A stretch of DNA of 64,000 nucleotides from a virus (IMGVR_UViG_3300028792_000004:3385-67384); one strand, 5' to 3'; shown: positions 845 through 32,467, numbered from the stretch's first letter. Translations and numbers: made by a program. Notes: generated by a model not told the origin, from the letters alone.

Positions 845-1059
845 CAGGCTGCCCATTCGGCCACCACCGCCTCGGTCAGGTCGTCCATGGCCTTGAGCGC
901 GCCGGCACGAGCGCGCTCGACTCCGCGGGAGACCTCGCTCTCGTAGCAACCCATGGACCACTTCACGGTGAACTTGTCCTTGACCAAGGTGCAGGTGACC
1001 GAGGTCTTGCCGTTGGCCGCGCGGGAGACGGTGAAGGACTCCGAGATCTCCTCGCTCAT
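844..1059 (-). CDS. hypothetical protein
   Basis: ORF coupled to neighbours by start/stop overlaps. Confidence 0.6.
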   Translation of the reverse strand: MSEEISESFTVSRAANGKTSVTCTLVKDKFTVKWSMGCYESEVSRGVERARAGALKAMDDLTEAVVAEWAA

Positions 1060-1358
1060 CCCAGCACCGCCTTGCCGGTCTCGTTGAGCTCGGCGCGCTC
1101 CCGATCACAGTCACAGATCGCCGCGGGCGGGATGCCCCGGGCGAACAGGTGCGGGTTGCCGCCAGCCTTCCAGGCCGTGAGGCACAGCTCGGCGGTCTCG
1201 CCGCTCACATGGACGTGCAACCCGTGGCTGCGGGAGCCGAGGTAGACCTTGGTGTCCTCGGTCGGGCCCTCGACGCCGACGACCAGCAGCGCGTCAGGCA
1301 TGAACGCATTGACGGGTGAGCCGGACAGCGTCCAGGTGACCTCCTCCTGGCTACTCAC
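1056..1358 (-). CDS. hypothetical protein
   Basis: GTG at 1358 next to the upstream stop; GC3-biased codons. Confidence 0.55.
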   Translation of the reverse strand: MSSQEEVTWTLSGSPVNAFMPDALLVVGVEGPTEDTKVYLGSRSHGLHVHVSGETAELCLTAWKAGGNPHLFARGIPPAAICDCDRERAELNETGKAVLG

Positions 1359-1749
1359 CGTGCAGCACCTCCTCGAGCAGGTCGCGCAGCATCTCGTCGG
1401 CACGGTGGTGGGGGAACCCGGCGTGGCCGGGGTCGGTGCTCACCTGGGCGCGCAGCACCTCGCGGAGCATGTGCAGCTGGACCTTGACCTTCTCCTGCTC
1501 GGTCGAGCCGGCAGGTGTGACCACGATCATCAAGGTCCCGATCTGGCCGGCCGGGTAGTAGCTCGGGTCGTGGACCGACTCGGGGTAGAGGTCGGACCAG
1601 GCGGTGCCGATGGCCGCGCAGGCCAGGTGGCGCGCAGCCTCGAGGTCACGCGCGATGACGACGTACCAGCCGTCCGGCTGGGCGTCGGGGAGTACGGGGT
1701 GCTCGATGGTCGCGTACCGGGACCCGAAGGTCAGGACAAAGCGTTCCAT
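1351..1749 (-). CDS. hypothetical protein
   Basis: SD GAGAGGA upstream of ATG 1749 (MERFVLTFGSRY...). Confidence 0.7.
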   Translation of the reverse strand: MERFVLTFGSRYATIEHPVLPDAQPDGWYVVIARDLEAARHLACAAIGTAWSDLYPESVHDPSYYPAGQIGTLMIVVTPAGSTEQEKVKVQLHMLREVLRAQVSTDPGHAGFPHHRADEMLRDLLEEVLHGE

Positions 1750-2048
1750 GGTGGGTGGTTCCTCTCTGGTGGGTGATGGGGGATTGCACGCCGGACACTG
1801 GCTGCGTGGCCGGACAGACTCGATCGCGACCACTCGGTCGCGAGCGGAGGTGGGCATGACGAAGCGCCCCTTTCGTGAGGTGGGTGCGACCAGCACCAGT
1901 CCTTGCATCCCGTTCGCCGTGCACGGCTACTGCGCCTTACCAGCAATGAGCCCGGGCGCTGCCCGTCCGCTGTCGTGCGACTAGGGGTAACGGTGTCTGC
2001 GGTTGGAGGAGATAGGTCGCCTACTCCCCGTGCTGGATCTTGGGTGAC

Positions 2049-3362
2049 CTAGAGCGAGGCGTCCTCGTCAGCGAGGAGCCGGTCGTAGGCCTGCTCGGCC
2101 GTGATGTCGCCGAGCTGGCCGAAGGCGGGGTTGAAGTCGGTGAACCAGCCCATGCCCTTCTTGCCGTGCCGGTTCTTGGCCACGACCTTCTTGCGGCTGC
2201 GCGAGCTGTGCTCGAGCAGCAGCTGCACGACGTCGGCGTCGGCACCTACGGTGTCCGCGCCGGCGAGGTTCTCCAGGCTGGGCTTGACGCCGGCACCGCG
2301 GGTGATCTGGTTGGCACCCAGGATGGGCACGGCCCGGTCCATCGCGATCTCCTTGAGCTCGGCGGTGATCCCGGCGATCACGCGCCAGTCGGTGCTGGCC
2401 TTCATGCCGTCGCTGCCGCGCATCAGTCCGTAGTAGTCGATGATGACCTTGGTGCCCTCGCCCACCATGCCGCGCACCAGCATCGGGGTGATCGGCTTGT
2501 CGTAGACCCGCAGCTGGCCGGAGTTCTTGGTCCAGGCCTCGATGTACTTGCGCCGGGTGCGGTCGTCGACCTCCTCCCAGTGCAGCCCGACGTCGCGCAT
2601 CACGATCCGGTGGATCCGGTCCAGCACCTCACCGGCCGGCATCTCCAGGGAGAAGAACGAGACGTCCCAGCCGTCCTCGAGGGCAGCGACAGCGTGTTGG
2701 GCCAGCGCCCAGGACTTGCCGACGTTGATCCGCGCAGCCATCGTCCACACGTGCCCGGGGCGGTGGGTGCCCAAGGCGTCGGTCTCGGCACCTGAGGGCA
2801 CCGCGCAGCCTTCACCGAGGTCACCGATGAGGTCGAAGTCGTCGATGCCGGCATAGCCCATCGTGCCGATGCGGGTGGTCTCGATCGCCTCCCGCAAGGT
2901 GGCAACAGCTTCCTCGAGCGCCTCGTCCTTGATCGAGGCCACTGCGGTGCCCATCGCCCTGCGCAGGCAGCGGGCGGAGTAGTCGCGCAGCAGCTCGTTG
3001 GCCGCGAACCGGACTGAGACACCGGGCAGGTAGGGGAAGCCGGGGAAGCGCTTGCAGACGTGCTCAGGGCTCGGCGCTCGTCCCGAGCTCGCCTGGTAGC
3101 GGCTGCACCAGGCGTGCACCGGCTTGTGGCCGATGATCACCGCGGGGTTGACCTCCCAGGCCTCGGGCACGTACTGGCCGGAGTCGAGGAGGGCGGAGAT
3201 GAACAGAACCTCCGGTGCTCCAGAACCCGCATAGGGGTCCCGGCCGGAGGTTCGGAGGGCGTTGGCCGCCTGGGCCAGCTCTGGGTTGTCCAGTGATGCC
3301 GGTGTCGGCAACACGGTGACCAGGGCGAGATTGGGGTCTTCGTCGTGTGGCTGAGTCGACAT
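2049..3362 (-). CDS. dnaB: DnaB-like (SF4) replicative helicase
   Basis: Walker A ARINVGKS, H1a FFSLEM, H2 IIDYYGLM, H3 VPILGANQITR, H4 DADVV...KNRHG; SD GAGGAG before ATG 3362. Confidence 0.9.
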   Translation of the reverse strand: MSTQPHDEDPNLALVTVLPTPASLDNPELAQAANALRTSGRDPYAGSGAPEVLFISALLDSGQYVPEAWEVNPAVIIGHKPVHAWCSRYQASSGRAPSPEHVCKRFPGFPYLPGVSVRFAANELLRDYSARCLRRAMGTAVASIKDEALEEAVATLREAIETTRIGTMGYAGIDDFDLIGDLGEGCAVPSGAETDALGTHRPGHVWTMAARINVGKSWALAQHAVAALEDGWDVSFFSLEMPAGEVLDRIHRIVMRDVGLHWEEVDDRTRRKYIEAWTKNSGQLRVYDKPITPMLVRGMVGEGTKVIIDYYGLMRGSDGMKASTDWRVIAGITAELKEIAMDRAVPILGANQITRGAGVKPSLENLAGADTVGADADVVQLLLEHSSRSRKKVVAKNRHGKKGMGWFTDFNPAFGQLGDITAEQAYDRLLADEDASL

Positions 3363-3950
3363 GGTTCTCCTCGTGATGGTGGGTGGTGGAGCCAAGGCCT
3401 CGAAGGGTGGATGGAGCAAGGGGCCAAGGGGTCTAGGACAGCACAAAGGGAGGGGAGCCACCACCCCTGACCAGTACCGGATGCGTGATCGCGGTGGTGG
3501 CCGGTGGGCAGAGAACTCCCCTCCCTCAGGTGGAGGACGTTATCAGGGGAATGCCCTAGCCGACAACACCCTGACACGATATGGTCCACCATGTGGCACA
3601 CAGCGAAGTAAGTGACGAAGTGGGAGAGTACGAGATGGGGCTGTTGGGACTTGACAAGGACGTGCTACCCTCCCAGCGGCTGAGCGTGCAGCAGGGGCAA
3701 GTGACACTCACCGAGCAGCAGCGTCAAGCCTGCTCGATGCAGAGAAGGACCGAAGGTGCTCACCAGCACTGCCCGAAGCTCCTGAGCGAGCGCTTGGCAT
3801 CCGGCCTAGCGGCCTACAGCCAGCGCTCGCAGCGCAGAGTGCACAGCGAGGCCGCGGGGCCTATCGCGCGAGAACTCTCCTATGACTCAGGATGCGTCAG
3901 GATGGACAGGGTGCTTGCGGGAGAGCGCTGCTGGGGGAACACTCCTAGGC
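3363..3950. promoter_or_regulatory. divergent non-coding control region between the leftward replication genes and the rightward operon
   Basis: About 590 nt with no convincing ORF at a strand switch; contains TGACACGAT (3572-3580) and tandem TCAGGATG (3887, 3897). Confidence 0.55.
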
Positions 3951-4034
3951 ATGCTCATGACTGTGTTGATCATCCTGGCCATCATCGCCCTGCTGCTCTT
4001 CATCATCGGAGGCGTGCGCGGCCGCCGCTACTGA
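3951..4034 (+). CDS. 27-aa single-pass membrane peptide
   Basis: Hand translation MLMTVLIILAIIALLLFIIGGVRGRRY*; hydrophobic helix with basic C-terminus. Confidence 0.6.
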   Translation: MLMTVLIILAIIALLLFIIGGVRGRRY

Positions 4035-4068
4035 CCCACCGACCCCTCCACCCTCACCTGGAGACCCG

Positions 4069-4383
4069 ATGACCTTCCTGCTGGTCCTGTGGCACCTGGC
4101 CCGCCTTGTCGGCAACCTGGCCGTGCTGGTGATGCTGGTGCTGCTGCTCACCGGCCACCTCGAGCTGCGGCGCACCGCGAAGCGGCTCTGGCGGCGCCGG
4201 GAGCTGGAGCTGCGCGAGGCCGACGTGGACATCAGCCACTTCCGCGACCCCACCAACGGCAACCCGGGCGTGCGGGTGACCCACCTTCGGACCGGGAGGG
4301 CAGCTGCGTGTGCGGAGACGAAGTCACAGCACACGAACGAGCAGCTCGCCATCGAGGCACAGGGACGGATCCTCAATGTCTGA
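4069..4383 (+). CDS. membrane-anchored RF-1 (release factor domain 3)-like protein lacking GGQ
   Basis: N-terminal TM helix; DVDISHFR...VRVTHLRTG...SQHTN..LA matches the RF-1 consensus on both sides of the GGQ loop. Confidence 0.7.
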   Translation: MTFLLVLWHLARLVGNLAVLVMLVLLLTGHLELRRTAKRLWRRRELELREADVDISHFRDPTNGNPGVRVTHLRTGRAAACAETKSQHTNEQLAIEAQGRILNV

Positions 4384-4765
4384 GATCCCGGTGCTGAACG
4401 AGACCTGCGCGCACTGCGGGATCTGGGACGGCCACGCCGCGGACTGCCCCCGGCTGCCGGCCAACGCGGCCCGCCGCGGTGTGGTGGACGAGCTCGCCCC
4501 GGAGATCAACGACGCGGTGGGCTACGACAACCGCAAGGAACTGGCCGACCTCTGGCAGGACTTCGCCCCGCTGCCGGAGCAGGGGCTGACCGAGGGCACC
4601 TACGACGCGCTGCTGCACGTGGCCAAGTGGGGTGCCAGGCGCGCGTTGGAGAACCGGCGTGACGTCGGGGCTTGCGTCTGCCGTCCGATCGCGCCTGTTC
4701 CCGGCGTTCACGGTGGCGGCATCGAGCCGCGCCCGCGGTGCCCGCAGCACGGGGAGCGTTCGTGA
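4376..4765 (+). CDS. hypothetical protein with Cys/His motifs
   Basis: CAHC...H...C and C-terminal CxC...CxxH; overlaps the previous stop. Confidence 0.65.
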   Translation: MSEIPVLNETCAHCGIWDGHAADCPRLPANAARRGVVDELAPEINDAVGYDNRKELADLWQDFAPLPEQGLTEGTYDALLHVAKWGARRALENRRDVGACVCRPIAPVPGVHGGGIEPRPRCPQHGERS

Positions 4766-4782
4766 GCACTGGAGAACCGGCG

Positions 4783-5028
4783 ATGAGCGCGCCGCTGCTG
4801 ACCGAGGCCGAGCACCGTGTCGTGGACCTGAGCAGCGAGCTCGCAGTCGAGCTTCATGGCGTCATTGGTCACGGCCCGTCTCGGGCGCAAGACCTTCGCG
4901 AGACCTTCGCCGCCATCCACATGATCCAGAACGCCGTGCTCGCTCAGGCAGCTGCTCGGGCCTACCCCGAGAGGTACCGGCTGATGGGCGAGGCGCTGGT
5001 CAAGGACATCGAGCGAGGGGAGGACTGA
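4783..5028 (+). CDS. hypothetical phage protein
   Basis: IH.IQNAVLAQAAARAYPERY motif recalled from actinophages; SD GGAG. Confidence 0.7.
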   Translation: MSAPLLTEAEHRVVDLSSELAVELHGVIGHGPSRAQDLRETFAAIHMIQNAVLAQAAARAYPERYRLMGEALVKDIERGED

Positions 5029-20547: not shown

Positions 20548-23500
20548 ATGCCCGTGTCGAAGGTGCTGAGTGTGCTGGCCAAGGCGGTGCAGCAGGACGA
20601 GGAGTCCGCTGCCGAGCTGATGGACCAGATCGCGATGGAGGTCATCGCCGACGAGATCGACGCCCATGGCGGCGACATCGAGCTGCTGGCCCGCCCACAG
20701 CTGGCCGAGCTGGTCGCCAAGGCCAAGCGCGGCCTGCTGCGCGGCTACGTCGCCAAGGCTGTCGCGGGCACCTACCCCGACGAGTCATACGCCCGCGTCG
20801 CGGCGCAGCTGAACATGCTCACCGAGGTGATCAAGGACGATGAGCCGTTCGACCCGAAGAAGCACCCCCGCGGCCAGGGTGGCCGGTTCACCCGTTCGAT
20901 CAGCCACGCTCCGGTCTCCAGCCTCTCCCACATCAGGGACTACCGGCAGCTCTCCCCGGCCAACCGGAGCCTGCGCGCCGCCGGCAAGGACCCCGACACG
21001 GACCCGGCCCGGGACAAGTTCCTGGCCGAGCAGGGGGAGTGGGAGGACGCCCAGCGGAAGATGAAGGAGTTCCAGGACACCTTCCCCGGCTCCACTAGGA
21101 ACGTCGACGCCGTCTTCTCCTTCCGGACCAAGGACGGCTCGAGCGAGAAGTTCTCCGTCCCGCTGGGCAAGCCGCTGGACGCCAACATCGCCGCAGCGGC
21201 CGGGTACGGCCTCGACGACCGGCTGGACTTCGTGGAGATCCAGCCCGGCCCCGGCGCCAACGAGGCCCTGAAGGACAAGGTCGCGCGCTTCAACGACATC
21301 GCCGGCCAGACCGGCTCGCCGCGCACTGCCCGGCTGATGACCAGCTACGACCCGGAGAAGCTGCGCTACCTCGGCGGGGTCTTCGGCGACGACATCAACG
21401 GCGAGGCCGTCCAGCGCCCCGGCATCAAGCGGTTCTTCAGCCGGACCCAGGCGGCCGGCAACGTGCTCGAGGGGATCACCGGCGCGGAGAAGTACGGCAA
21501 GATGGTGCGCCTGGCCGGTGAGTTCGGCTCCGAGGCCGACCGGGCGCTGGGCCCCGCGGCCCAGCGCGCCGCCTACCGCTACCGCGGCACCGAGAAGGAG
21601 GCCGACCCGACCTTGCGCCGGGCCTTCACCAGCCGCGACATGCAGCTGGTCGACGCGGTGGGCGAGGCCAACAGCGGGGACGACCTGGCGCGGGTCGACC
21701 AGATCCGCGAGGGGATCAAGCAGCAGAAGCGCGAGCGGGGCGGCACCAGCCCGGTGCTCGGCGCCCTGGAGCACCGGCTCACCGAGTCGGCCAACTCCCC
21801 CGAGCCGATGCTCGGTGACGAGCTGGCGATGAAGGTCCGCTCCGACGTCGCCGCGGCGCACATGATGTCCACGCTGCCCGACGACCCGCGCGCGGCCGAG
21901 CTCTCCCGGCTCTCGGGTCACGTGCTGCCCTCCCAGGGCGTGATCATCGACCACGATGGCGACGTGGTCTCCCAGGCGGTCGGCTACGGCGAGGACCACT
22001 ACTTGCCCTTCGACCTGAAGAACATCCGCGCGCTCAAGGGCGGCCAGTACGTGCGTACCCGGATGGAGGGCGGCCCCACCGGCGAGGACGTCTACGCCCT
22101 GGTCGCCACCGGCGCCCGGATGGGCACCGTGGTGTCCTCGAGCGGGGTCTTCACCTTCGAGATGGACCCGAACTTCCGCGGCCGCCGCGGCTCCAGCGAC
22201 AAGGCCCGGATGGTCTACCAGCGCTACCTGGAGATCCTCGACGCCGTGGACGGCTCCGGGCTCTACTCCCGCGACCTCTCCGCTGCCGACAAGGCCCGCG
22301 TGGAGGAGACCGCGAGCGCGATGAACTACGAGATCGGCGGCACTGAGCACCAGGCGATGCTGAACGCCGAGCGGGCCAAGCAGAAGAAGCTCACCCCCGA
22401 CCAGGTAGAGGCCATCGAGGCCGAGGCACGCCAGGAGCTGCAGGCCAGCGGCCGGCGCTTCACCGAGCTTTCCACCGCGCGGCAGAACGCCGAGGTCACC
22501 TCGCTGACCGAGGAGCGTGTGCTGGAGCGCAAGGGCGAGCTGATCCGCGAGGTCTCGCTCAACGCCGAGGGCTACGCGCTGGCCATGAAGACGCTGCAGC
22601 AGCAGTTCCCCTACTTCATCCGCACCGCGACCTACGAGCCGCTGCGCAACAAGGAGACTGGCGGCGGCTTCTTCGCTGCCCGGGGTATGGACGCGGGCCA
22701 GGCCGTGCGCCAGCGCTCGCTGTCCGACGACCGCGGCTACGTCCGTCCAGGTGGGCTGCGCTCGGAGGGCACCAAGGAGGGCTTCTACGCCACCGCCGGC
22801 GCGCGCAGGCTCAAGCGGACCAAGCGGGACGAGCCCGAAGAGTCTCCCAAGGCGATCCCGGCCGCAGCCGGGACCGCCGCTGTGACAACTCCTGGCGCTG
22901 CTGCCCCCGCCGCGGCGCCCAGCCAGGCCACGGCCGTTCCCAGTGGGAAGCTCGCTGAGGCGCTGGCGCCGCGCTCGACCGAGTTCACCAACAGGCGCGA
23001 TGTGGCGGTCAAGGAACTCCACCAGGCGTGGGCCGTGCTCAGCCAGTCCAACCAGGGTCAGCTCGGTGGCCAGGGACTGGAGAACCTCGGCGGCGCGCAG
23101 GTCCCGTGGGACCAGGTCAAGGGTCGTCGCGACCTCGCGGCCGCCTGGCTGATGGACGCGGTGCCGGCACAGTTCAACGAGGTGATGTCCACCGACCAGG
23201 CCAGCGCGCTCGACGTGCTCTCGGACCGGGACCTGATCGCCTCTACTGTGCGCGGCAAGCTCTCGGCCGGTGCGGCTGGCTGGGGCGACCCCCAGGCGAT
23301 CGAGGCGCTGCAGCTGCCCGGGGTCAAGGACTCCGACTCCTTCGCCAGGTACGTGGCCGACACCGCCCAGCGGGTGGTGGACTACCAGCAGCTGGCCAAC
23401 CCGGCCTTCTTCCGCACCACCGAGGGCGTCTGGGAGACCAGCGGGCCGCGCGAGCAGCCCGACCTGGCCACGATCACCACCCAGGAGGGGCTGGACGCCT

Positions 23501-24066
23501 ACGCCAAGCAGCACCCCGAGACGGCCCGGCTCGCCCAGACCATCGGCCTCGCCGGAGACCGCCCCCGGCGGTTCTCCGACATGAAGTCCGACGTCGCAGA
23601 GCGGCTGAAGGCACTGAAGGCCTTCTCCAACTTCAGCGACGCGCTGCGCGCAGCCGCGACGAGCATCAGCTCCCCGGACCAGATGAAGGAGCGGGCAGTC
23701 GCTCAGAAGCTCTCCGAGGCTGGGATCGACGCCGACCAACTGGGCAAGATGGTCGGTCGGCAGTTCGGCAGCCCGGTGGAGATCGCCGACTGGGCGCGCG
23801 GGGAGGCCGGCGTCTCCGGCGCGGACCGGGCGGCGATGGAGATCCAGCGGGCCTGGTCCCTGGCCGCGGTCTCCAGACTGGTCGACGCGGCCGAAGGCGG
23901 TGACCTGGTCCCAAAAGACGAGCCCGCCCTGGCCCGACTGGCCAAGGCGGCGCCCTCGCTCCCACGGGTCGCCGTGCTCTCACCGAAGGACCCACGGAGT
24001 CTGGTGGTGAAGCGCCTGGTGCGCGACCAACCGCTCCCGCGAGCCTTTCGCGCGCAGAGAAGGTAG
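20548..24066 (+). CDS. large putative internal head protein (1172 aa), N-terminal partner of a -1 frameshift
   Basis: SD GAGGAG; HPRGQGGRF motif; degenerate JAB/MPN-like segment; slippery site near the C-terminus. Confidence 0.7.
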   Translation: MPVSKVLSVLAKAVQQDEESAAELMDQIAMEVIADEIDAHGGDIELLARPQLAELVAKAKRGLLRGYVAKAVAGTYPDESYARVAAQLNMLTEVIKDDEPFDPKKHPRGQGGRFTRSISHAPVSSLSHIRDYRQLSPANRSLRAAGKDPDTDPARDKFLAEQGEWEDAQRKMKEFQDTFPGSTRNVDAVFSFRTKDGSSEKFSVPLGKPLDANIAAAAGYGLDDRLDFVEIQPGPGANEALKDKVARFNDIAGQTGSPRTARLMTSYDPEKLRYLGGVFGDDINGEAVQRPGIKRFFSRTQAAGNVLEGITGAEKYGKMVRLAGEFGSEADRALGPAAQRAAYRYRGTEKEADPTLRRAFTSRDMQLVDAVGEANSGDDLARVDQIREGIKQQKRERGGTSPVLGALEHRLTESANSPEPMLGDELAMKVRSDVAAAHMMSTLPDDPRAAELSRLSGHVLPSQGVIIDHDGDVVSQAVGYGEDHYLPFDLKNIRALKGGQYVRTRMEGGPTGEDVYALVATGARMGTVVSSSGVFTFEMDPNFRGRRGSSDKARMVYQRYLEILDAVDGSGLYSRDLSAADKARVEETASAMNYEIGGTEHQAMLNAERAKQKKLTPDQVEAIEAEARQELQASGRRFTELSTARQNAEVTSLTEERVLERKGELIREVSLNAEGYALAMKTLQQQFPYFIRTATYEPLRNKETGGGFFAARGMDAGQAVRQRSLSDDRGYVRPGGLRSEGTKEGFYATAGARRLKRTKRDEPEESPKAIPAAAGTAAVTTPGAAAPAAAPSQATAVPSGKLAEALAPRSTEFTNRRDVAVKELHQAWAVLSQSNQGQLGGQGLENLGGAQVPWDQVKGRRDLAAAWLMDAVPAQFNEVMSTDQASALDVLSDRDLIASTVRGKLSAGAAGWGDPQAIEALQLPGVKDSDSFARYVADTAQRVVDYQQLANPAFFRTTEGVWETSGPREQPDLATITTQEGLDAYAKQHPETARLAQTIGLAGDRPRRFSDMKSDVAERLKALKAFSNFSDALRAAATSISSPDQMKERAVAQKLSEAGIDADQLGKMVGRQFGSPVEIADWARGEAGVSGADRAAMEIQRAWSLAAVSRLVDAAEGGDLVPKDEPALARLAKAAPSLPRVAVLSPKDPRSLVVKRLVRDQPLPRAFRAQRR
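23896..23950 (+). promoter_or_regulatory. programmed -1 ribosomal frameshift signal (SD-like GGCGGTGA, C CCA AAA, stem-loop)
   Basis: Heptamer 23910-23916 in the zero frame; hairpin 23924-23950 starts 7 nt downstream; -1 frame open 23904-24941. Confidence 0.75.
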
Positions 24067-24941
24067 AGGCGGCCTACGACGCCCTGGAAGACATGATCGG
24101 CATGGAGTCGGTCAAGCGTCAGGCGTACTCCCTCGCCGCGGCGGCGCAAGCACGCCGCGAGCGTGAGGAGGCCGACCTGCCCGTCACCGACCGGACCAAC
24201 CACCTGGTCTTCACCGGCAGCCCCGGGGTGGGCAAGACGTCGGTGGCGCGGATCTTCAAGGACCTGTACTACGGACTGGGCCTGATCGAGCGCGACTCCT
24301 ACGTCGAGGCGCAGACCTCGGACCTGATGGGGTCCTACATGGGCCAGACTCCCGAGCGCACCCGGAAGTTCCTCGAGGACAACAAGGGCGGCGTGATCTT
24401 CATCGACGAGGCCTACAAGTTCTCCGAGGGCGAGCGCAACGAGTACGGCCAGCAGGCACTCAACGAGATCCTCACCTTCGCCGACGAGCACCGTGGCGAC
24501 ACCGTGATCATCCTGGCTGGCTACCCCGAGGCGATGCGCAGGATGCTCAACACCAACCCCGGGCTGCCGCGGCGCTTCCCGAACGTGATCGAGCTGCCCG
24601 ACCTCGACCGCGGCGGGATGAGCGAGGTGATGCACCGCAACCTGCGCTCGAACCTGGACAAGCTCGCACCCGGCGGGCACCAGGCGCTCGAGCGCGCCAT
24701 GGACCGCGCGCTCCCCGCTCTGCAGACCGGCAACGCCGGCGAGGTGCGCAACCTGCTGGAGAAGATCCACACCGCCCGCGACCTGCGGCTGGCCCCGCTG
24801 CCGAAGCGCACGATGGCCGACAAGACCACGATCACCATCGACGACATCGAGATCGGCACCCGGGACTACCTCGCCAGCGCGCAGGCCCAGCGCGGCCGGC
24901 TGGTGCCGACGAATCGGAAGAAGTCCCTTGCAGACGGGTGA
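23910..24941 (+). CDS. SpoVK/CbbX/EccA-family AAA+ ATPase domain, probably expressed as a frameshift extension (first ATG at 24093 lies inside the domain)
   Basis: HLVFTGSPGVGKT, GSYMGQT, GGVIFIDEAY, IILAGY, NPGL.RRF; homologous first helix EAAYDALEDMIG begins upstream of the ATG. Confidence 0.85.
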   Translation, partial: PKRRARPGPTGQGGALAPTGRRALTEGPTESGGEAPGARPTAPASLSRAEKVEAAYDALEDMIGMESVKRQAYSLAAAAQARREREEADLPVTDRTNHLVFTGSPGVGKTSVARIFKDLYYGLGLIERDSYVEAQTSDLMGSYMGQTPERTRKFLEDNKGGVIFIDEAYKFSEGERNEYGQQALNEILTFADEHRGDTVIILAGYPEAMRRMLNTNPGLPRRFPNVIELPDLDRGGMSEVMHRNLRSNLDKLAPGGHQALERAMDRALPALQTGNAGEVRNLLEKIHTARDLRLAPLPKRTMADKTTITIDDIEIGTRDYLASAQAQRGRLVPTNRKKSLADG

Positions 24942-27222
24942 GCGCTGGTGGACCGACATCGAGAAGGCCCAGCAGGTCCTCTCGATCGTCGGAGGCGACG
25001 ACGTGGCGCAGAGCGTCGGCACGGTGGCGCTGGGCTACCACGCCGTGCTGGCGAGCTCGCTGCGCCCGCTGTGCGCCCGCACGCTGATCGACCATGCGGA
25101 CGTGACCAACGCGCTCGAGGACGTCGACCTGTTCCCGGTGATGAAGGCGATGACCGCCGCCGTCTCCCCGGTGCTCGGCGACGCCGCCGGGGTCTACGCC
25201 GCCGACCTGGTGGGCCAGCTGCACCAGGAGGCCGAGGAGGGGATCCTCCACGAGCTGCGGATCCTCGTCTCCAAGGGCGTGGCGTGGCCTCAGGCGATCG
25301 AGCGCGTCTGTGGCGTCGCCGGCGTCCCGGCTCGCGCGGTCAACGGCTACGTGCAGAAGATGGCCCAGCCACAGGTGAACCCCCTGGTGCTGGCCGACGA
25401 GGGCGACCGCACGCTGATGACCTGGGCCTCCCGGCTGGGCGCGCGCGAGGCCACCTCACCACTGGAGGGTGTGGCCAAGGTCGAGAGCTTCGACGAACGC
25501 GAGCACCCACGGTCCGGGGAGACCGGCCGCTTCGTGGAGGCTCCTGACGACGGGGCCACCGCCGGCGGCGAGCGGCAGGCGCGGCTGTCCCGGCTGTCCC
25601 GCCTCTCCCGGCTCAGCAACCTCCAGGCTCGGTCCCGTGCCGAGGCGAGTGAGCGCGTCGCAGCGGAGGAGAAGCGCCAGGGCGAGAAGAAGTCCCTGGC
25701 CGAGCTCCAGGCCGAGGTGCTCGGTCGCCGCGGGGCGCAGGGCCGCGCGCCCCGCACGCGCGGCGCGCAGGGCCGTGAAGCGCAGGGTCGCGAAGCGCAG
25801 GTGCGGGCCCCGCGCATCCAGGAGGCCCCCAGGACACGCGAGCTGGCGCGGGTTGAGGAGGCGCCGGCGCCGATCGCGGCGCAGCGTGAGTCCTTCGGCC
25901 ACCGGCTGCACGAGCAGGTCTCGGTCGACATGAACCCCGGCGCCATCGCACTCACGCACATCGGCGCGATCCTCTCCGGCAACGAGATCGGCCGGCTGGG
26001 AGACGTCACCACGAAGCCGGGCGAGCAGGTCATCGGCCAAGCGAGACTGCTGATCGACCAGGCCTACGTCAGCCACGACAACGGCGACGGCACCTACGAG
26101 CTCGACGAGAACTACGACTACCGGATCACCGGCGCCGAGCTCAGCGGCCTCGACCTCGTACTGCGGCTGGCGCCGATCGAGGACGGCGGCGTCGGCAAGG
26201 CGGACTTCGACGAGCGCGAGCACCCGCGTGACGAGGATGGCCGCTTCTCCGAGACCGAGTCCAGGCGTCAGCGCCTCTCCCGCCTCTCCCGACTCCAGGG
26301 GCTGGCCAACCGGCAGGCCCGGCAGGCGGCGGCGAGTGCCGCCGAGACCAAGGCTCGCGAGGCTGCTCGGGACGAGGCGAGTGCCACCGAAGCGGTGCTC
26401 GCGCGGATGCAGCCCGCGCAGGGTCGAGAGGCCAAGACGCGCGGGGCCCAGACCAGGAGCGCCCGACTCGTGCCCACCCGGGCGCGCAGCGCCCGGAGGG
26501 CTGCGGAGGAAACCAGGCAGGAAGCGCAGCCCCAGGTCGACCACCTCAGCGCCGAGCGGCCGGCACTGCTGCTCGACGAGTCCACTTTCGCCCAGCTCAC
26601 CAACGCCTATGTCGACGACGAGGCGTTCAAGGAGCCCACGAACCTCAGCGCGGTGACCGGCAGGTCACCGAGCGAGATCAAGTCGCTGATGAAGTCCACC
26701 CAGATGGTGCAAGGGGACCAGGTCAGTGATCGCCTCGCTGCGCACGCGTGGCAGTCGATCTTCCAGCAGCATCGTGGCCGGCAGATGATCGAGGTCGCCG
26801 AGGCGCACCACGTCTTCACCACGGCCGGTGAGGCGCGTGACGCCGCGATCCAGCTGCTCGGTGCGGAGAAGCGGCTCGACGAGGACGGCCTCGAGGCCTA
26901 CGTCCCCGGGGTCGAGGCGATCGCGCACCGCGGCGGCGGCCCGGCCGTCTACCGCCCGGTCGTCTACCGGCAGCCCCTGGAGGGCAGCAGCGATCTGCAC
27001 GACGCTCCGTTGCACGTGATGACCGGCGACGCAGGCGCGATGATGCGCCTGCGCAACGGCGACACCGAGGGGCTGGTGATCCAGCGCGTCGGCGAGGGCG
27101 CCGGCGCGCAGGAGCTGGAGCGGATGGGCGGCGGCACTCACCTGGGCTTCGCCGATGTGCACCTGAACACCAACGTCTTCGAGGTCATAGACACGCGCCA
27201 ACCGCGGGAACGTCGGCCATGA
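24928..27222 (+). CDS. putative internal head protein with two HPR..GRF / RLSRL / AQGR modules
   Basis: TTG start with GGAAG SD; internal duplication visible in the translation. Confidence 0.7.
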   Translation: MQTGERWWTDIEKAQQVLSIVGGDDVAQSVGTVALGYHAVLASSLRPLCARTLIDHADVTNALEDVDLFPVMKAMTAAVSPVLGDAAGVYAADLVGQLHQEAEEGILHELRILVSKGVAWPQAIERVCGVAGVPARAVNGYVQKMAQPQVNPLVLADEGDRTLMTWASRLGAREATSPLEGVAKVESFDEREHPRSGETGRFVEAPDDGATAGGERQARLSRLSRLSRLSNLQARSRAEASERVAAEEKRQGEKKSLAELQAEVLGRRGAQGRAPRTRGAQGREAQGREAQVRAPRIQEAPRTRELARVEEAPAPIAAQRESFGHRLHEQVSVDMNPGAIALTHIGAILSGNEIGRLGDVTTKPGEQVIGQARLLIDQAYVSHDNGDGTYELDENYDYRITGAELSGLDLVLRLAPIEDGGVGKADFDEREHPRDEDGRFSETESRRQRLSRLSRLQGLANRQARQAAASAAETKAREAARDEASATEAVLARMQPAQGREAKTRGAQTRSARLVPTRARSARRAAEETRQEAQPQVDHLSAERPALLLDESTFAQLTNAYVDDEAFKEPTNLSAVTGRSPSEIKSLMKSTQMVQGDQVSDRLAAHAWQSIFQQHRGRQMIEVAEAHHVFTTAGEARDAAIQLLGAEKRLDEDGLEAYVPGVEAIAHRGGGPAVYRPVVYRQPLEGSSDLHDAPLHVMTGDAGAMMRLRNGDTEGLVIQRVGEGAGAQELERMGGGTHLGFADVHLNTNVFEVIDTRQPRERRP

Positions 27223-27243: not shown

Positions 27244-27969
27244 ATGCGTGATGCGAGGACCGTGGTGAGCAAGCTGCACGAGGTCGACCCTGGCTTCCGG
27301 GAGCTCTGCGACACCCTCTTCGGCGGTGCCGTCGACGTGGACCGCGTCTACGAGGCTGCCTACACCCGCGACGGGGTCTCGAAGATGTTCCCCGACGCCG
27401 CCGACCTGCACGCGCCCGGCACTGGCGGGCTGCGCGCCACCGGACGCCGCCGGCGCAAGCCGAAGGCGGCAGTCCACAAGGGCGAGGAGCGGGTGGGCGA
27501 GGAGGAGATCCTCGACGCCGGTGAGGTGCTGGACGAGATCGAGAAGGGCGCCGGCGTCGACGTCATCTTCCACACCGAGTTCGCCAAGATGGACACCGAC
27601 AAGCGCGAGGTCTTCGGCTGGGCCAGTGTCGTGGAGCTCAACGGCCAGCCGGTCGAGGACCGCCAGGGCGACATCATCACCCCCGAGGAGCTCGAGCGCG
27701 CGGCGTACTCCTACGTGCAGAAGTCCCGCGTCGGCGGCCGCCAGCACCAGCGCGAGGGCGACAGCCCCTTCCACGCCTCCGACATGATCGAGTCCCTGGT
27801 GCTGACCAAGGAGAAGGTCGAGAAGATGGGGCTCCCCGCGAGCACCCCGCTCGGCTGGTGGGTCGGCTACAAGGTGCACGACGACGACACCTGGTCGGCC
27901 ATCAAGAAGGGCGACCTCACCGGCTTCTCGATCCACGGCCGCGGCCGCCGGGTCCCGATCGAGGCCTGA
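27244..27969 (+). CDS. XkdF-type (S78-like) prohead serine protease domain
   Basis: KREVFGWA...D.QGD....ELERAAY...QH...MIES...GWWVG.KV.D...W..IKKG.LTGFSIHG; SD GAGGAGG. Confidence 0.8.
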   Translation: MRDARTVVSKLHEVDPGFRELCDTLFGGAVDVDRVYEAAYTRDGVSKMFPDAADLHAPGTGGLRATGRRRRKPKAAVHKGEERVGEEEILDAGEVLDEIEKGAGVDVIFHTEFAKMDTDKREVFGWASVVELNGQPVEDRQGDIITPEELERAAYSYVQKSRVGGRQHQREGDSPFHASDMIESLVLTKEKVEKMGLPASTPLGWWVGYKVHDDDTWSAIKKGDLTGFSIHGRGRRVPIEA

Positions 27970-29177
27970 TGGGCGCGCTCGTTCAGACTGATGACCGCCG
28001 CAAGCGCGCGGTCACGGCAGGCCTGAGTGGTGTCGGTGCTGCAGCTGGTGCGGGCGGGCTCGCACTCGCCGGCTCCAAGTTCGGTGCCGCGGCGCGCAAG
28101 GCGCCCAAGGGGATGCGCCTGAAGGCGGCGTACCGCTCGGAGAAGGGCGCCGCGCTGCTGCTCCCGCTGGAGGCCGCAGGGCTCGCTGGTGAGTTCTCCG
28201 CGACCAAGATCCTGCACTCCGACGCCAAGAAGAACCGCCCGGTGGTCCAGCTCAACAAGGCCACCTCGCTGCGCCCGAACTACTACTTCAACCCGGCGAC
28301 CGCCGAGCGGCAGGAGGGCAAGCGTCAGCGTCTCGCGACCGAGGCCCAGCACCAGGGCGCTCGAGCGACGGCACTGGGCTTCACCGCCGCCGGCGGGTCG
28401 GCGCTCGGCGCCCGGGCCACCACCAGCCGTCTGGCCCCGGCTGCGGCCGCGTCTGCGCACCGCGGCGCGATCGCCCGCGGCGTACCCCGCGAGCACGCTG
28501 ACCTGGCGCATGCGAAGTTCCACCAGGTCCGCACCTGGGCCAAGCCCCGCCGTGGACGACTGCTGGCTGGCGCGACGGCCGCTGCCGGTGCCACGGCTGC
28601 CGCTGGGGCGGTGGCGCGCTGGAAGCGCGACGAGACCACCGGCATCAGCCAGGACCTTGGCCGCTCCGCATCCGGCGCGCGCTACAGCCGCTACAAGGAC
28701 CAGGTGGGCAAGGCGCTGCCGCTCGCACTCGCGGCAGAGGGCATCACCCTTGGGGTGAAGGCCAGCCAGCGGATGACCCCGGCCCACGTCCGGCAGATCA
28801 AGCGGGTCGGCGCCGGCGTGGCCGGCGGCGCCCTGGTCGCCACCGGCGCCTACAGCACCGGCCGGGTCCGGGAGACCAAGCGCAACCGCCGGCTGGTCCG
28901 CGCTGCGCAGACGACGTCGAAGCAGCGCGGGCTCCGAGACGTCACCAAGGCCGAGGCCCACCTCGAGGACGTCGCCAAGAGCTCCTACCGGCGCCGTACG
29001 GTGCCTGACCCCGGTTCCGAGCTCGACGTCATCGCCGCAGCTGCGCTGCTGCTCGACTCCGAGCACGAGAAGAGCTGGCTGCCCTGGCGCCGGCGCAAGC
29101 AGATCCACGAGCAGCTGCAGGCGGCCATCGCGCGTGGCTACCTCAACGCTCCGTACACCGTGGGAGGTCCTCGATGA
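27969..29177 (+). CDS. basic modular head-region protein with glycine zippers
   Basis: TGATG coupling; LNK/A, VGK/A, VTK/A and VAK/S motifs. Confidence 0.65.
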   Translation: MGALVQTDDRRKRAVTAGLSGVGAAAGAGGLALAGSKFGAAARKAPKGMRLKAAYRSEKGAALLLPLEAAGLAGEFSATKILHSDAKKNRPVVQLNKATSLRPNYYFNPATAERQEGKRQRLATEAQHQGARATALGFTAAGGSALGARATTSRLAPAAAASAHRGAIARGVPREHADLAHAKFHQVRTWAKPRRGRLLAGATAAAGATAAAGAVARWKRDETTGISQDLGRSASGARYSRYKDQVGKALPLALAAEGITLGVKASQRMTPAHVRQIKRVGAGVAGGALVATGAYSTGRVRETKRNRRLVRAAQTTSKQRGLRDVTKAEAHLEDVAKSSYRRRTVPDPGSELDVIAAAALLLDSEHEKSWLPWRRRKQIHEQLQAAIARGYLNAPYTVGGPR

Positions 29178-29890
29178 CCGAGTTGGTGGAGTACCGCAAG
29201 GCACTGAGCACCAAGGCCCAAGTCGGGCTCGGAGTCGCTGGCGGGACTGCCGGCGTGGCAGCGCTCGCGGCATCTCCAGCCGGCCGTAAGCGCCGCAAGC
29301 TGGAGCAGTTCAGGGCGGAGTACCGCCGCTCGAGCCCGGAGCAGCAGGCGTTGACTCGGCAGCGGTTCACGGAGGCCTACTCGCGCAACCGGGCCCAGAC
29401 TCTGATGAGTCAGGCCATCCAGAAAGGAAGCACCATGTCGATCGAGTCCACCACGGACGTCTACGAGTCTGAGGGCCACGGCGACGGCCGCGGGCACAGC
29501 ATGCAGTCGGTCGAGAAGGCGATGATCCCCACGCCGCAGGGCGTGCTCGGCACGTACCTGGTGCCCGAGGAGATCTCCAAGCGCGCGCGCCGCTACGACC
29601 CAGAAGCCGACCGGCAGCGCCGGATGGGCCTCTACGCCGGCGCGGGCCTGGGCGGCGGTGCGGTGCTCGCCCGGGAGTCTGCCGACCGGCTCTCCAACTC
29701 GGTCGACCGGGAGCGGCGCACTGTCACGGTCCCCAAGATCAAGCTCAAGGGGCTGAAGGGCGCGGAGCTGAAGGCGGCCAAGCGCGGCCGCTCAGGGCTC
29801 GGCCTGGCGGCCCTGGCTGCCCTCTCCAGCGGCGGTGGGGTCGCGGCCTACCGGCACGGCATCTCGCGCCGGAACCAGCCCTACAACTGA
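29174..29890 (+). CDS. basic modular head-region protein with glycine zippers
   Basis: SD GGAGG; YRK/A, IQK/G, VEK/A and ISK/R motifs. Confidence 0.65.
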   Translation: MTELVEYRKALSTKAQVGLGVAGGTAGVAALAASPAGRKRRKLEQFRAEYRRSSPEQQALTRQRFTEAYSRNRAQTLMSQAIQKGSTMSIESTTDVYESEGHGDGRGHSMQSVEKAMIPTPQGVLGTYLVPEEISKRARRYDPEADRQRRMGLYAGAGLGGGAVLARESADRLSNSVDRERRTVTVPKIKLKGLKGAELKAAKRGRSGLGLAALAALSSGGGVAAYRHGISRRNQPYN

Positions 29891-29956
29891 TCTGGTGGAC
29901 GATCTTGCTCAACTTCGCGTGCCAACGGCCGATTCCGGCGTCAGGATGATCTTGAG

Positions 29957-31036
29957 ATGACCAGACGGACCATGCTCAGTGACTTGGAGATCGACGAGGT
30001 CTCCACTGTCGATCGACCCGCGAACCAGCACGGACTGATCACCTTCTCGAAGCGTTACGGCAGCATCGAGAAGAGCACCCATACCGAGGAGGACCTCATG
30101 TCGGCCGGAACAGCAGAGATCGAGGTGTTCGACGACGAGGGCACCCCAGTGGACCCCGACTCGCTCGAGCACGGTGCCCTGGTCTACGACGTCGATGGCA
30201 ACGAGTACGCCTACGTCGAGGACGAGGAGGACGACGACCAGGTCGGCAAGTCCCTCTTCTCCGACCCGGAGGGTGCGCTCAACGCGGCCCGGAAGGTCAC
30301 CCGCAACGGCCGCGCAGCTGCGGCGCGCGGTGCGGCCAACCGCAAGGCCGCGGGCGCAGTCGACAACGCCGCCCGCCGGGGCCGCGGAGCCAAGGACTAC
30401 ATGTACTCCTCGGGCGGCACGACCCGGGGCGCTGACGGCGTCTTCACCGCGGGCAACCGCGGTCTGACCCGCAACGGCCGCGTCGTCCTGACCACCGCCG
30501 GAGGTGCTGGTGCCGCCGGCGCCGCCGCTGGCTACGAGACGGCCAAGAAGTCGCTGGGTGACCACGTCCTCGAGGAACTCTCCAAGGCCGTGACCGAGGA
30601 CGACCGCGCCGACATCATCGCCAAGGCGCTCGACCAGGTCGAGATCGCCAAGTCCGAAGCCGCCCAGGTCCGCAAGGAGCTCGACGACGAGAGGGACCTG
30701 CGCCTGGAGACCGAGTTCATCTCCAAGGCCGACGAGTACAACCTCCCCGTCGACCCCTCCGAGTTCGGCCCGGTGCTCAAGCGCCTGGTCGAGCGGATGG
30801 ACGAGGACGACCTGGAGATCCTGGACCAGGTCTTCAAGTCGGCCGGCGACCTGCTCTACCAGGAGTACGGCCACGTCGGTGGCGGCTCCAACAGCTCGAT
30901 CATCGACAGCGTGGACGCGCTGGCCGGTGAGATGGTCACCAAGGCCGGAGGTGGCTTCACCACCGCCGAGGCCCAGGTGGCGCTGTTCGAGGCCAACCCC
31001 GAGGCGTACGACGCCTACATCCAGGAAGGACGCTGA
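29957..31036 (+). CDS. scaffolding protein with an N-terminal protease-like strand (LEIDEVSTVDRPAN)
   Basis: Upstream of decoration and capsid genes; acidic helical C-terminus ending PEAYDAYIQEGR; many hydrophobic-x-K/[AS] motifs. Confidence 0.7.
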   Translation: MTRRTMLSDLEIDEVSTVDRPANQHGLITFSKRYGSIEKSTHTEEDLMSAGTAEIEVFDDEGTPVDPDSLEHGALVYDVDGNEYAYVEDEEDDDQVGKSLFSDPEGALNAARKVTRNGRAAAARGAANRKAAGAVDNAARRGRGAKDYMYSSGGTTRGADGVFTAGNRGLTRNGRVVLTTAGGAGAAGAAAGYETAKKSLGDHVLEELSKAVTEDDRADIIAKALDQVEIAKSEAAQVRKELDDERDLRLETEFISKADEYNLPVDPSEFGPVLKRLVERMDEDDLEILDQVFKSAGDLLYQEYGHVGGGSNSSIIDSVDALAGEMVTKAGGGFTTAEAQVALFEANPEAYDAYIQEGR

Positions 31037-31039
31037 CCC

Positions 31040-31459
31040 ATGGCGTACGAGGAGACTCTCAGGAACATCAGCCTCGACGCTGACGCGTCGCTGGCTGCGC
31101 AGACGGGCATCTCGGGCACGCCCGGTGCGGCCAGTCCGCACTACGGCCCGGCCCTGTTCCGCTTCGTCAAGGTCACCGGAGCGCACGCCTGTGGCCGCGC
31201 TGCGGCCCAGACGGACGACGTGATCGGGGTGTGCCAGAACAAGCCCCAGGTCGTCGGAGGCGCCACGACCGTGGCGATCGCCGGTGTGACGATGCTCATG
31301 GCGGGTGCGGCAGTCGCCGCGACCGACAAGATCTCGTCGGACAACCAGGGCCGCGGGGTCCCGCTCGGTGGAGCGGGTGCCGGTGCGGTCCAGTTCGGGG
31401 TTGCGGTCGATGCCGCGGCTGCTGCCGGACACCTCTTCCCGATGCTGATCAAGGTCTGA
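31040..31459 (+). CDS. capsid decoration / cement protein (DUF2190-like)
   Basis: FRFVK...IGV.QNKP...TVAIAG...AG.AVAA.D.I.SD.QGR; lies between scaffold and capsid. Confidence 0.75.
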   Translation: MAYEETLRNISLDADASLAAQTGISGTPGAASPHYGPALFRFVKVTGAHACGRAAAQTDDVIGVCQNKPQVVGGATTVAIAGVTMLMAGAAVAATDKISSDNQGRGVPLGGAGAGAVQFGVAVDAAAAAGHLFPMLIKV

Positions 31460-31474
31460 AGGAGATCCTGAGCC

Positions 31475-32467
31475 ATGCCGCTTCCCACACAGAGTGACCT
31501 CCACGTCAACGTCCCGCTGACGAACGTCTCGGTCGCCTACATGCAGAAGGCCGGCGACTACATCGCCAGCAAGGTCTTCCCCAAGGTGCCCGTCACCAAG
31601 CAGTCGGACCTCTACTGGAAGTACTCCAAGTCCGACTGGCGTCGGACCGAGGTCAAGCGCCGTGCGCCTGCCACGGAGTCGCCCGGGGTCGGCTGGAGCC
31701 AGACGACCGACAACTACTACTGCCACCCGTACGCGGTCCACAAGGACATCGACGACCAGGTGCGCGCGAACTCGGACTCGAACTTCAAGCTCGACAAGGA
31801 GTCCACCGAGTTCATCACCAACCAGCTCCTGCTCAAGCGGGACCTGGACTGGAACGCCACCTACTTCAAGTCCGGCGTCTGGGACGTCGACCTGGTCGGT
31901 GGCACGGACTTCACGAAGTTCGACGACGCGGCCTCGGACCCGATCAGCTTCATGGCGCAACGGATCATCCAGTTCCGCAAGCGCAACGGCTTCAAGCCGA
32001 ACAAGCTGGTCCTGGGTGCCAACGTGATGGTGGGGCTGAAGAACCACCCCGACATCATCGACCGGATCAAGTACACCCAGCGGGGCATCGTCACCGAGGA
32101 CCTGATCGCGACCCTCTTCGACATCGACGACATCTACACGTCGTATGCCACGCTGTCGGACGGCCCGCAGATCCCGGACGCGCAGCTGCAGGACGCAGCT
32201 GCGACGTACGACTTCATCACGGACCCGAACGGCATGCTGATGCTGTACGCGCCCGCGAGCCCGTCGCTGCAGACCCCGAGCGCCGGCTACACCTTCACCT
32301 GGGACGGCTACGTCAACTCCGGCGGCAACGGCATCCGCATCAAGCGGTTCCGCCAGGAGCAGATCGAGTCCGACCGCGTGGAGGGGTCGATGACCTACGA
32401 CATGAAGGTCGTCAGCCCGGACTGCGGCGAGTACTTCAGCGACGTCGTCGCCGCCATCGCGGACTGA
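31475..32467 (+). CDS. major capsid protein (lambda gpE-like)
   Basis: PLTNVSVAY.Q...YIA.KVFP.VPV.KQSD.Y.KY.K N-terminus; 330 aa; SD AAGGAG. Confidence 0.9.
   Translation: MPLPTQSDLHVNVPLTNVSVAYMQKAGDYIASKVFPKVPVTKQSDLYWKYSKSDWRRTEVKRRAPATESPGVGWSQTTDNYYCHPYAVHKDIDDQVRANSDSNFKLDKESTEFITNQLLLKRDLDWNATYFKSGVWDVDLVGGTDFTKFDDAASDPISFMAQRIIQFRKRNGFKPNKLVLGANVMVGLKNHPDIIDRIKYTQRGIVTEDLIATLFDIDDIYTSYATLSDGPQIPDAQLQDAAATYDFITDPNGMLMLYAPASPSLQTPSAGYTFTWDGYVNSGGNGIRIKRFRQEQIESDRVEGSMTYDMKVVSPDCGEYFSDVVAAIAD

Follow-up and report, generated by a model that had tools for sequence, protein, structure and literature searches.

The prohead protease gene of an uncultivated virus stops almost immediately after its putative nucleophile, which raises the question of where the remainder of the protease fold is encoded. 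The stretch we analyzed, referred to here as the window, is 64 kb of a 67.6-kb record from IMG/VR (IMGVR_UViG_3300028792_000004:3385-67384, about 70% G+C), and the protease gene occupies positions 27244-27969. A sequence-only reading of the window had proposed that the last strand of the fold is donated in trans by the product of a scaffold gene at 29957-31036; both open reading frames (ORFs), and the two peptides quoted from them, are present at these positions in our ORF list. Judging from sequence comparison, we conclude that the prohead protease is genetically split, with a segment of its fold encoded at the beginning of a scaffold gene that lies 2 kb further downstream, past two other genes. 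The split, the homology of the scaffold start and the conservation of the arrangement hold at the level of sequence, and we infer binding and completion of the fold.

The protease gene encodes a core of the XkdF type. Residues 112-236 match PF14550 (Peptidase_S78_2/XkdF) at profile positions 4-124 of 126, with a score of 74.6 bits where the cut-off is 24, and this is the only Pfam family that the gene matches; PF04586 is not among its matches. His168 and Ser229, both invariant across 61 relatives, form a putative catalytic pair. In profile comparisons with hhalign, they align with the invariant His94 and with Ser148 (GYSMAG) of XkdF relatives that carry an additional S-x-V-x-x-x-A-N...K segment in the same chain as the core (hereafter same-chain relatives). 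The gene stops 12 residues past Ser229 (...IKKGDLTGFSIHGRGRRVPIEA), and among the 120 relatives listed, all terminate in TGFS(I/V/L)HG(R/K/S/A)G(K/R)R plus 5-10 residues, placing the C-terminus 10-20 residues past the serine in every one. The alignment to the same-chain relatives (E = 2.2e-18) pairs window residues 95-241 with same-chain residues 24-161, so same-chain residues 1-23 have no counterpart in the window protease. A search for the segment motif in the XkdF ORFs of 80 related loci gave zero matches.

What the protease gene lacks is found at the start of ORF 29957-31036, whose N-terminus reads MTRRTMLSDLEIDEVSTVDRPANQHGLITFSKR. We regard this ORF as scaffold-like; its sole family match is between residues 208-355 and phrog_13547, a family of unknown function (E = 3.5e-6). 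All sampled relatives of the scaffold carry the pattern D(L/I)E(I/F)DE(V/I)SxVDRxANQHxLIxF(S/A)K, preceded by 5-25 residues. Within it, D13, E14, S16, V18, D19, A22, N23, Q24 and K32 do not vary among 51 scaffolds, whose identity to the window protein is otherwise about 40-75%. The 26-residue N-terminal motif is the most constrained part of the scaffold. The scaffold N-termini align by hhalign with the same-chain XkdF family at residues 2-33 (E = 1.4e-7). With the protease aligning to residues 24-161, a single same-chain protein thus maps onto two genes of the window.

Independent comparisons place the scaffold motif at the end of the HK97-type protease domain. PF04586 (HK97-type Peptidase_S78) was matched by 23 of 52 scaffold N-terminal fragments, with a best E-value of 3e-4 and all matches below the 21-bit cut-off; the next family had four matches. 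In four fragments scanned singly, the PF04586 matches covered positions 128-161 of the 165 in the profile, which is where the domain model ends. The scaffold profile gave a sole alignment to HK97 gp4, at residues 139-164 (E = 0.0011). When a motif profile was built from the N-termini of unrelated same-chain XkdF proteins, the scaffold N-terminus ranked first, with a marginal score, of 1124 six-frame ORFs in the window. These comparisons argue that the scaffold start is homologous to a segment belonging to this protease fold.

HK97 gp4 provides the reference for how the pieces are ordered in one chain. The sequence-only reading had taken the HK97 type to run from the nucleophile motif to the segment within a single protein, and this is borne out by gp4, in which GMSVGF (Ser114) is followed by 24 residues and then by LREISVCTFPANEQAGIAAMK(159)S, ending the segment at K159. 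The order of elements is the same in gp4 and in the window: first strands, the histidine, a G-x-S-x-G nucleophile to which Ser229 (GFSIHG) corresponds, and then E-[IV]-S-x-[VC]-x-x-P-A-N...K, with 16 residues between the motif serine and the lysine in both the scaffold segment and gp4. In both, what lies beyond the segment is the portion that carries, or in the window would carry, the enzyme into the shell. They differ in that gp4 holds everything in one chain, whereas in the window the first chain stops once past the nucleophile and a protein encoded 2 kb away has the last segment at its head; HK97 also has no separate scaffold, using the delta domain of its capsid protein instead. The protease family itself aligns weakly with gp4 by hhalign (E = 0.048), over the first strands only. 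A search for gp4 relatives in viral contigs returned near-identical copies only, and no diverse S78 profile could be built from them.

By their sequences, the PF14550 proteases occur in three layouts: segment first, segment last and segment on the scaffold gene. The segment comes first in the same chain in gp09 of Bacillus phage vB_BtS_B83, HSTV-1 gp13, HHTV-2 gp38, Nonlabens P12024L and two Bacillaceae prophages. B83 gp09 (399 residues, annotated xkdF-like) starts ...ELKNAKITHVSYVDKAANKKQFFFTKS, followed by the XkdF core and then by a scaffold-like tail. The sequence-only reading had placed such a permuted, N-terminal segment in XkdF of PBSX. Checked on xkdF-like relatives, this position holds for B83 gp09 and for nearly all of its best 150 relatives: the first 170 residues of gp09 had 6506 relatives at E<=0.001 in a representative library, and nearly all of the best 150 align from query residues 1-8, with exceptions starting at 19, 31 and 42. 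In an alignment of 68 same-chain relatives, S15, V17, A21, N22 and K30 are invariant at the N-terminus. The fusions B83 gp09, HSTV-1 gp13 and HHTV-2 gp38 share with the window the core family, the segment and a scaffold-like body in the system. These fusions have the segment at the N-terminus of the protease chain, which is circularly permuted relative to HK97, with the scaffold body placed after the core, whereas in the window segment and scaffold body form one protein and the core another.

The segment comes last in the same chain in ORF12 of Methanobacterium phage psiM2 and ORF12 of psiM100, where the core is followed by about 25 residues, the segment with its lysine (...VVTVSIVDRPAVPKARYLSIKR) and a scaffold-like tail. 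This is the order of the window, but unsplit. Every unsplit PF14550 protein that we examined keeps the segment in the same chain.

In the third layout, the segment lies on the next structural gene, and this is how it is found in Arthrobacter phage Mufasa8 (gp4/gp5), the Roseobacter phages CRP-6 (gp55/gp54) and RDJL6, Rhizobium phage RHph_Y1_11 (gp149/gp150), Stenotrophomonas phage Summit (gp3/gp5) and gut phage MT835491. As in the window, a segment-less XkdF core gene precedes a gene that starts with the segment, although in the cultured phages the two genes are adjacent or have one small gene between them, as opposed to two larger genes (403 and 238 residues) in the window. The segment is thus portable, as expected of an autonomous docking element. 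Some of these proteins have features of their own. RHph_Y1_11 gp149 (locus L183, 5977-6615) and Summit gp3 (L185, 3251-3853) have C-terminal extensions with paired His-rich motifs (HDHEF...HKHLF and HRHEF...HRHRF, respectively), possibly a metal site. The RHph genes are annotated as 'DNA methyltransferase/prohead protease', for which the 213-residue sequence is not obviously supportive. Mufasa8 gp5 (L002, 4321-5610) has an unusual scaffold body, in which about 250 residues of low-complexity repeats rich in Ala, Pro and His lie between the segment and a short helical C-terminal part.

The sequence-only reading had called for a survey of gene neighborhoods, which shows the split to be conserved in the related loci as well as one that recurs in several cultured phages. 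We took 80 viral loci with relatives of the protease, 74 of which had enough downstream sequence. In all 74, the motif stands at the start of a downstream plus-strand ORF and never inside the protease ORF. The distance from the protease ORF to the motif ORF ranges from 15 to 4839 nucleotides (median 1.9 kb), and this variable gap suggests that the space between the halves is a variable insertion site. In 66 loci, the scaffold, the phrog_673 gene and the capsid gene follow one another in this order. When the profile is made from same-chain relatives alone, its matches likewise divide over two ORFs in Summit (strand part, independent E-value (iE) 3.9e-7), RHph_Y1_11 (3.8e-6) and Mufasa8 (1.2e-3), and in 22 metagenomic loci. 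One apparent full-length same-chain match, at locus L054, proved to be an alignment overrun in which the motif is absent. At three other loci, the XkdF core sits inside a longer ORF that runs 1-2 kb beyond the serine motif (L050, 649-3114; L052, 4912-8235; L059, 2173-5469); there the core is fused to other domains and the segment is still on a separate scaffold.

Structure models were compared for a same-chain relative and for the window core alone. The same-chain model is confident (predicted local distance difference test (pLDDT) 84, predicted template modeling score 0.78), with the N-terminal segment forming a strand at residues 2-17 with pLDDT above 90, a disordered linker at 36-47 and a long strand after the serine. 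Its best match is the T4 gp21 prohead protease (Z 9.6, root mean square deviation (rmsd) 3.0, 117 residues aligned), and the varicella-zoster virus (VZV) protease (Z 5.1) and human cytomegalovirus (HCMV) protease (Z 3.6) also stand above unrelated rows. The alignments to the VZV and HCMV proteases stop just past the nucleophile; herpesvirus proteases have two more core strands after the nucleophile, one of which bears the third catalytic residue. The window core modeled alone has pLDDT 62.9, with its last nine residues (233-241) below 50 and no strand after Ser229. Its match to T4 gp21 (Z 4.4, rmsd 4.8, 93 aligned) is tied with unrelated rows, and no VIA-align row stood above Z 4.7. Foldseek searches of the PDB with both models returned nothing at E<=0.001, T4 gp21 appearing only at E about 1 with the same-chain model, and sequence searches of the PDB with the window protease, HK97 gp4 and the same-chain profile gave chance-level matches only. 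The window core model fits an incomplete fold.

Co-folding of the protease with the scaffold N-terminus, the check that the sequence-only reading had suggested, lends weak support to an interaction. Core residues 105-241 with scaffold residues 1-45 scored 0.42, compared to 0.00 for the best of three controls; at least 65% of contacts were common to the runs, and the pLDDT of the partner was at least 45. The mark applied here was reached by 58 of 80 solved complexes and by two of 110 mismatched pairs, and scores of 0.60 or below included only seven of those 80 solved complexes along with both passing mismatches.

We favor an explanation in which the two genes would build one enzyme. A pro-region and the XkdF catalytic core, up to just beyond the nucleophile, would come from the gene at 27244-27969, and the segment would come from scaffold residues 1-32. 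The segment would dock on the core as added beta-strands, tying the protease to the scaffold and so building it into the procapsid; docking may also be required for a stable, active enzyme. After assembly, the protease would cut after conserved lysines, at scaffold K32 (FSK/R) and at its own K101, and the cut at K32 would part the complete protease (core and segment) from the scaffold body, which could then leave. We put the probability that the first 32 scaffold residues dock on the core as added strands and thereby bring the protease into the procapsid at roughly 60%.

Several points weigh against this explanation. Far more scaffold than protease is normally made, which would leave most scaffold N-termini without a partner. 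The 60-residue fragment of the window's own scaffold has no PF04586 match at E<=1, and the motif profile from same-chain relatives alone is marginal for it (iE 0.05, next best 2.8). Between families, the segment residues vary apart from the alanine and the lysine (Ser is replaced by Asp in Mufasa8, and Asn by Val, Gln or Thr elsewhere), which makes a catalytic contribution doubtful. D143, a conserved core aspartate in a GD motif common to HK97, could complete a triad without the segment. The placement of the segment where T4 gp21 and the herpesvirus assemblins have their last strands is inferred from the order of elements along the sequence, and the low confidence of the core modeled alone may reflect alignment quality instead of an incomplete fold. 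The co-folding pass, for which no interface was reported, falls in a weak range of scores: unless an interaction was probable to begin with, a pass in this range is wrong more often than it is right.

A stronger form of the explanation makes the core an obligate two-chain enzyme, which stays unfolded or lacks activity for as long as scaffold residues 1-32 have not been inserted as its missing strands. We hold this form as tentative, with the odds somewhat against it. If it is true, proteolysis would start only where scaffold is concentrated, in the procapsid, and the protease would cut at K32 and keep the segment while the scaffold body leaves.

The segment could instead be a tether and nothing else, with the core complete and active alone and the scaffold motif serving as a docking tag by which the protease, or a different partner (the portal or capsid protein, for instance), is brought into the procapsid, with no part in fold or activity. 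The histidine, the serine and the conserved aspartate all lie within the core, the co-folding support is weak, and the cores at L050, L052 and L059, embedded in longer ORFs with other domains after them, indicate that the C-terminus need not be free. In HK97, the C-terminal tail of gp4 is reportedly used for capsid targeting. However, the motif maps inside the Pfam S78 domain model (about positions 128-161 of 165) and not to a tail beyond the domain, and a same-chain segment is present in every unsplit PF14550 protein examined. The models also speak against a tether alone: the segment is modeled with pLDDT above 90 in the same-chain relative, and the core without it is modeled poorly, with an unrecognizable fold. 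We consider a tether alone unlikely, though it is the alternative to docking by fold sharing that survives best.

The conserved lysine invites another alternative. In every layout, the segment varies least at the small residue (Ala of P-A-N) and at the lysine about 16 residues after the Ser or Asp, and the context of the lysine is always hydrophobic-x-K: FSK/R in the window, FTK/S in B83, SIK/R in psiM2 and AMK/S in HK97 gp4. HK97 cuts its capsid protein gp5 at FNK103/S104, residues that we checked in the gp5 sequence. The scaffold FSK/R site (K32, present in 51 of 51 scaffolds) is a plausible candidate for the release site that the sequence-only reading had proposed. A cut at this lysine in the segment-last and split layouts would part the complete protease from the scaffold or targeting part, which suggests that the segment belongs with the protease module.

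The protease has a comparable site of its own. Its residues 4-55 are helical (pLDDT 73-81) and form a small domain kept in 26 related loci; after this domain comes a variable, gapped linker whose sole conserved island, [VMLI]-x-K-[SA]-D, ends the N-terminal region. K101 is present in 56 of 61 protease relatives. Residues 1-101 look like a pro-region, and K101 is a candidate processing site. The split proteases of some other phages (Mufasa8 gp4 and RDJL6) have no such 100-residue N-terminal extension.

Because the lysine is the most widely conserved position in all layouts, the scaffold N-terminus could be an extended recognition sequence for the K32 cut, a substrate or pseudo-substrate that binds the groove transiently, and its likeness to the protease segment would reflect a common autocleavage site. 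The hydrophobic-x-K context, like that of FNK/S in HK97 gp5, and the similar context at protease K101 fit this account. Yet about 25 residues upstream of the lysine are conserved, far beyond the needs of protease subsites, and no comparable motif precedes K101. It is the upstream part, and not the lysine, that matches PF04586 and the same-chain XkdF N-termini, and we regard a purely substrate role as improbable.

The phylogeny of the core bears on how the split arose. In a quick tree of 73 cores, the window clade forms a single clade with CRP-6, RDJL6 and MT835491 in which every member is split (Shimodaira-Hasegawa-like approximate likelihood ratio test (SH-aLRT) 99), and RHph_Y1_11 with Summit, together with the long-branched Mufasa8, group with same-chain forms. 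The split needs at least two changes on this tree, although it may nevertheless have had a single origin. A psiM2-like gene would most simply be split by gaining a stop codon and a start codon in the stretch that joins nucleophile and segment, and the adjacent, overlapping gene pairs look like the outcome of such a change. The same gene pairs are what a relic would leave: the motif might survive from an ancestor in which protease and scaffold were fused, or in which the scaffold had a nested start like that of lambda C/Nu3, and might now have a scaffold-specific role that does not involve the protease. In CRP-6, Mufasa8, L076 and L079 the scaffold start overlaps or abuts the protease stop, an arrangement expected if a fusion of the psiM2 ORF12 type acquired a stop mutation. 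A relic is very improbable given that the motif is under stronger constraint than the remainder of the scaffold, co-occurs with a segment-less XkdF core in 74 of 74 loci and holds across the deep all-split clade (SH-aLRT 99). Joining of the halves by frameshifting or read-through, for which a single frame change at the stop would suffice in the adjacent relatives, is excluded for the window by its gene map, in which the halves lie 2 kb apart with two intact genes between them, both translationally coupled and read in other frames, and it is hardly credible for relatives with gaps of up to 4.8 kb.

The features of the locus are collected in the table below.

Table. Coordinates of the protease-scaffold region and its neighbors in the 64-kb window.
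Feature	Position	Strand	Evidence
1172-residue head-module protein	20548-24066	+	
AAA+ ATPase	24093-24941	+	
764-residue protein	24928-27222	+	
Prohead protease gene, 241 residues, XkdF type PF14550, core without S-x-V-D-x-x-A-N segment	27244..27969	+	Pfam, hhalign
Protease N-terminal extension, residues 1-101: helical domain, linker, K101 island	27244..27546	+	structure model, alignment
His168, putative catalytic His	27745..27747	+	invariant in 61 relatives
Ser229 in GFSIHG, putative nucleophile	27928..27930	+	invariant in 61 relatives
Intervening gene 1, 403 residues, start overlaps protease stop (ATGA)	27966..29177	+	ORF list
Intervening gene 2, 238 residues, start overlaps gene 1 stop (ATGA)	29174..29890	+	ORF list
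Scaffold-like gene, 359 residues, directly upstream of phrog_673 gene and major capsid gene	29957..31036	+	phrog_13547
Putative detached protease segment, scaffold residues 7-32, LSDLEIDEVSTVDRPANQHGLITFSK, ends at K32	29975..30052	+	conservation, hhalign, PF04586
Small head gene, 139 residues, phrog_673	31040..31459	+	PHROG E 3.1e-13
Major capsid protein, 330 residues, phrog_1005	31475..32467	+	E 5.1e-84, residues 4-326 on profile 5-315 of 315

All genes around the protease-scaffold region are on the plus strand in the ORF list. The major capsid protein has no N-terminal delta domain, and a separate scaffold is therefore expected. Just after the segment, the scaffold has a second conserved block at residues 45-85 (30089-30211), ...MP..(F/Y)DE.G..VD...LE.GD(V/I)V.D..G.EY..., in which G62, L70 and G73 are invariant and V76, D78 and G81 are conserved at 90% or more. 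Neither of the two intervening genes (27966-29890), which the sequence-only reading took for cargo genes and each of which starts on an ATGA overlap with the gene before it, matches a Pfam or PHROG family. Their products include several hydrophobic stretches rich in Gly and Ala, and they may encode internal head or ejection proteins. Relatives of the 238-residue protein occur in the protease-scaffold gap at 25 related loci. Elsewhere, the 403-residue protein matches only eight loci, inside ORFs that also hold an XkdF core, and these matches possibly reflect low complexity. The gene at 29174-29890 shares its frame with the scaffold gene, and the 66 nucleotides between them hold no stop (29888-29959), such that read-through of one stop would fuse the two; this arrangement is probably chance, and the frames differ in a relative (L007). 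Searches of deposited phages with the region and the scaffold, by megablast for DNA and by tblastn for protein, returned no match.

Other viruses offer likenesses to the proposed arrangement in mechanism or in fold. In adenovirus protease/pVIc, flavivirus NS3/NS2B and hepatitis C virus NS3/NS4A, the protease is switched on by a short peptide of a second viral protein that contributes a further beta-strand, in adenovirus inside the particle; the likeness is one of mechanism only, the folds and families being unrelated. Lambda C/Nu3, P2 gpO and herpesvirus UL26/UL26.5 are protease-scaffold fusions or nested genes. In these, as proposed for the window, the protease enters the procapsid by a link to the scaffold, but their link is covalent, whereas that of the window would be a non-covalent sharing of the fold. 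The herpesvirus protease belongs to the same fold superfamily (VZV protease, Z 5.1 with the same-chain model). A literature search on XkdF/PF14550, circular permutation of prohead proteases and strand complementation by scaffolds found no description of a fold split between protease and scaffold genes. The PF14550 and PF04586 proteases and the protease-scaffold fusions are already known. What is new is the wide spacing with two genes between the halves, the set of three layouts including the segment-last psiM2 form, the conserved lysine boundary and the list of cultured phages with the split.

To our knowledge, how prohead proteases are recruited to the procapsid and silenced until assembly ends is understood in few model phages, in each of which a covalent bond to the scaffold or capsid protein, or else a targeting tail, provides the link. 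Having part of the protease fold in common with the scaffold would solve the problem in another way, nearer to that of adenovirus protease and pVIc, and fold sharing would also explain the function of the best-conserved part of the scaffold. The finding corrects annotation: in several deposited phages, the second half of the protease would lie inside a gene annotated 'hypothetical protein', as the second genes of the cultured split phages are, and the 127-241-residue 'protease' genes would not encode whole domains. The presence of the split in cultured phages of Arthrobacter, Roseobacter, Rhizobium and Stenotrophomonas makes the proposal directly testable. The three natural layouts provide a natural case study in circular permutation and fold complementation. 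If the proposal is true, a segment that is usable at either end of the chain or in trans would constitute a natural split-protein system, with genes for internal proteins insertable between its halves.

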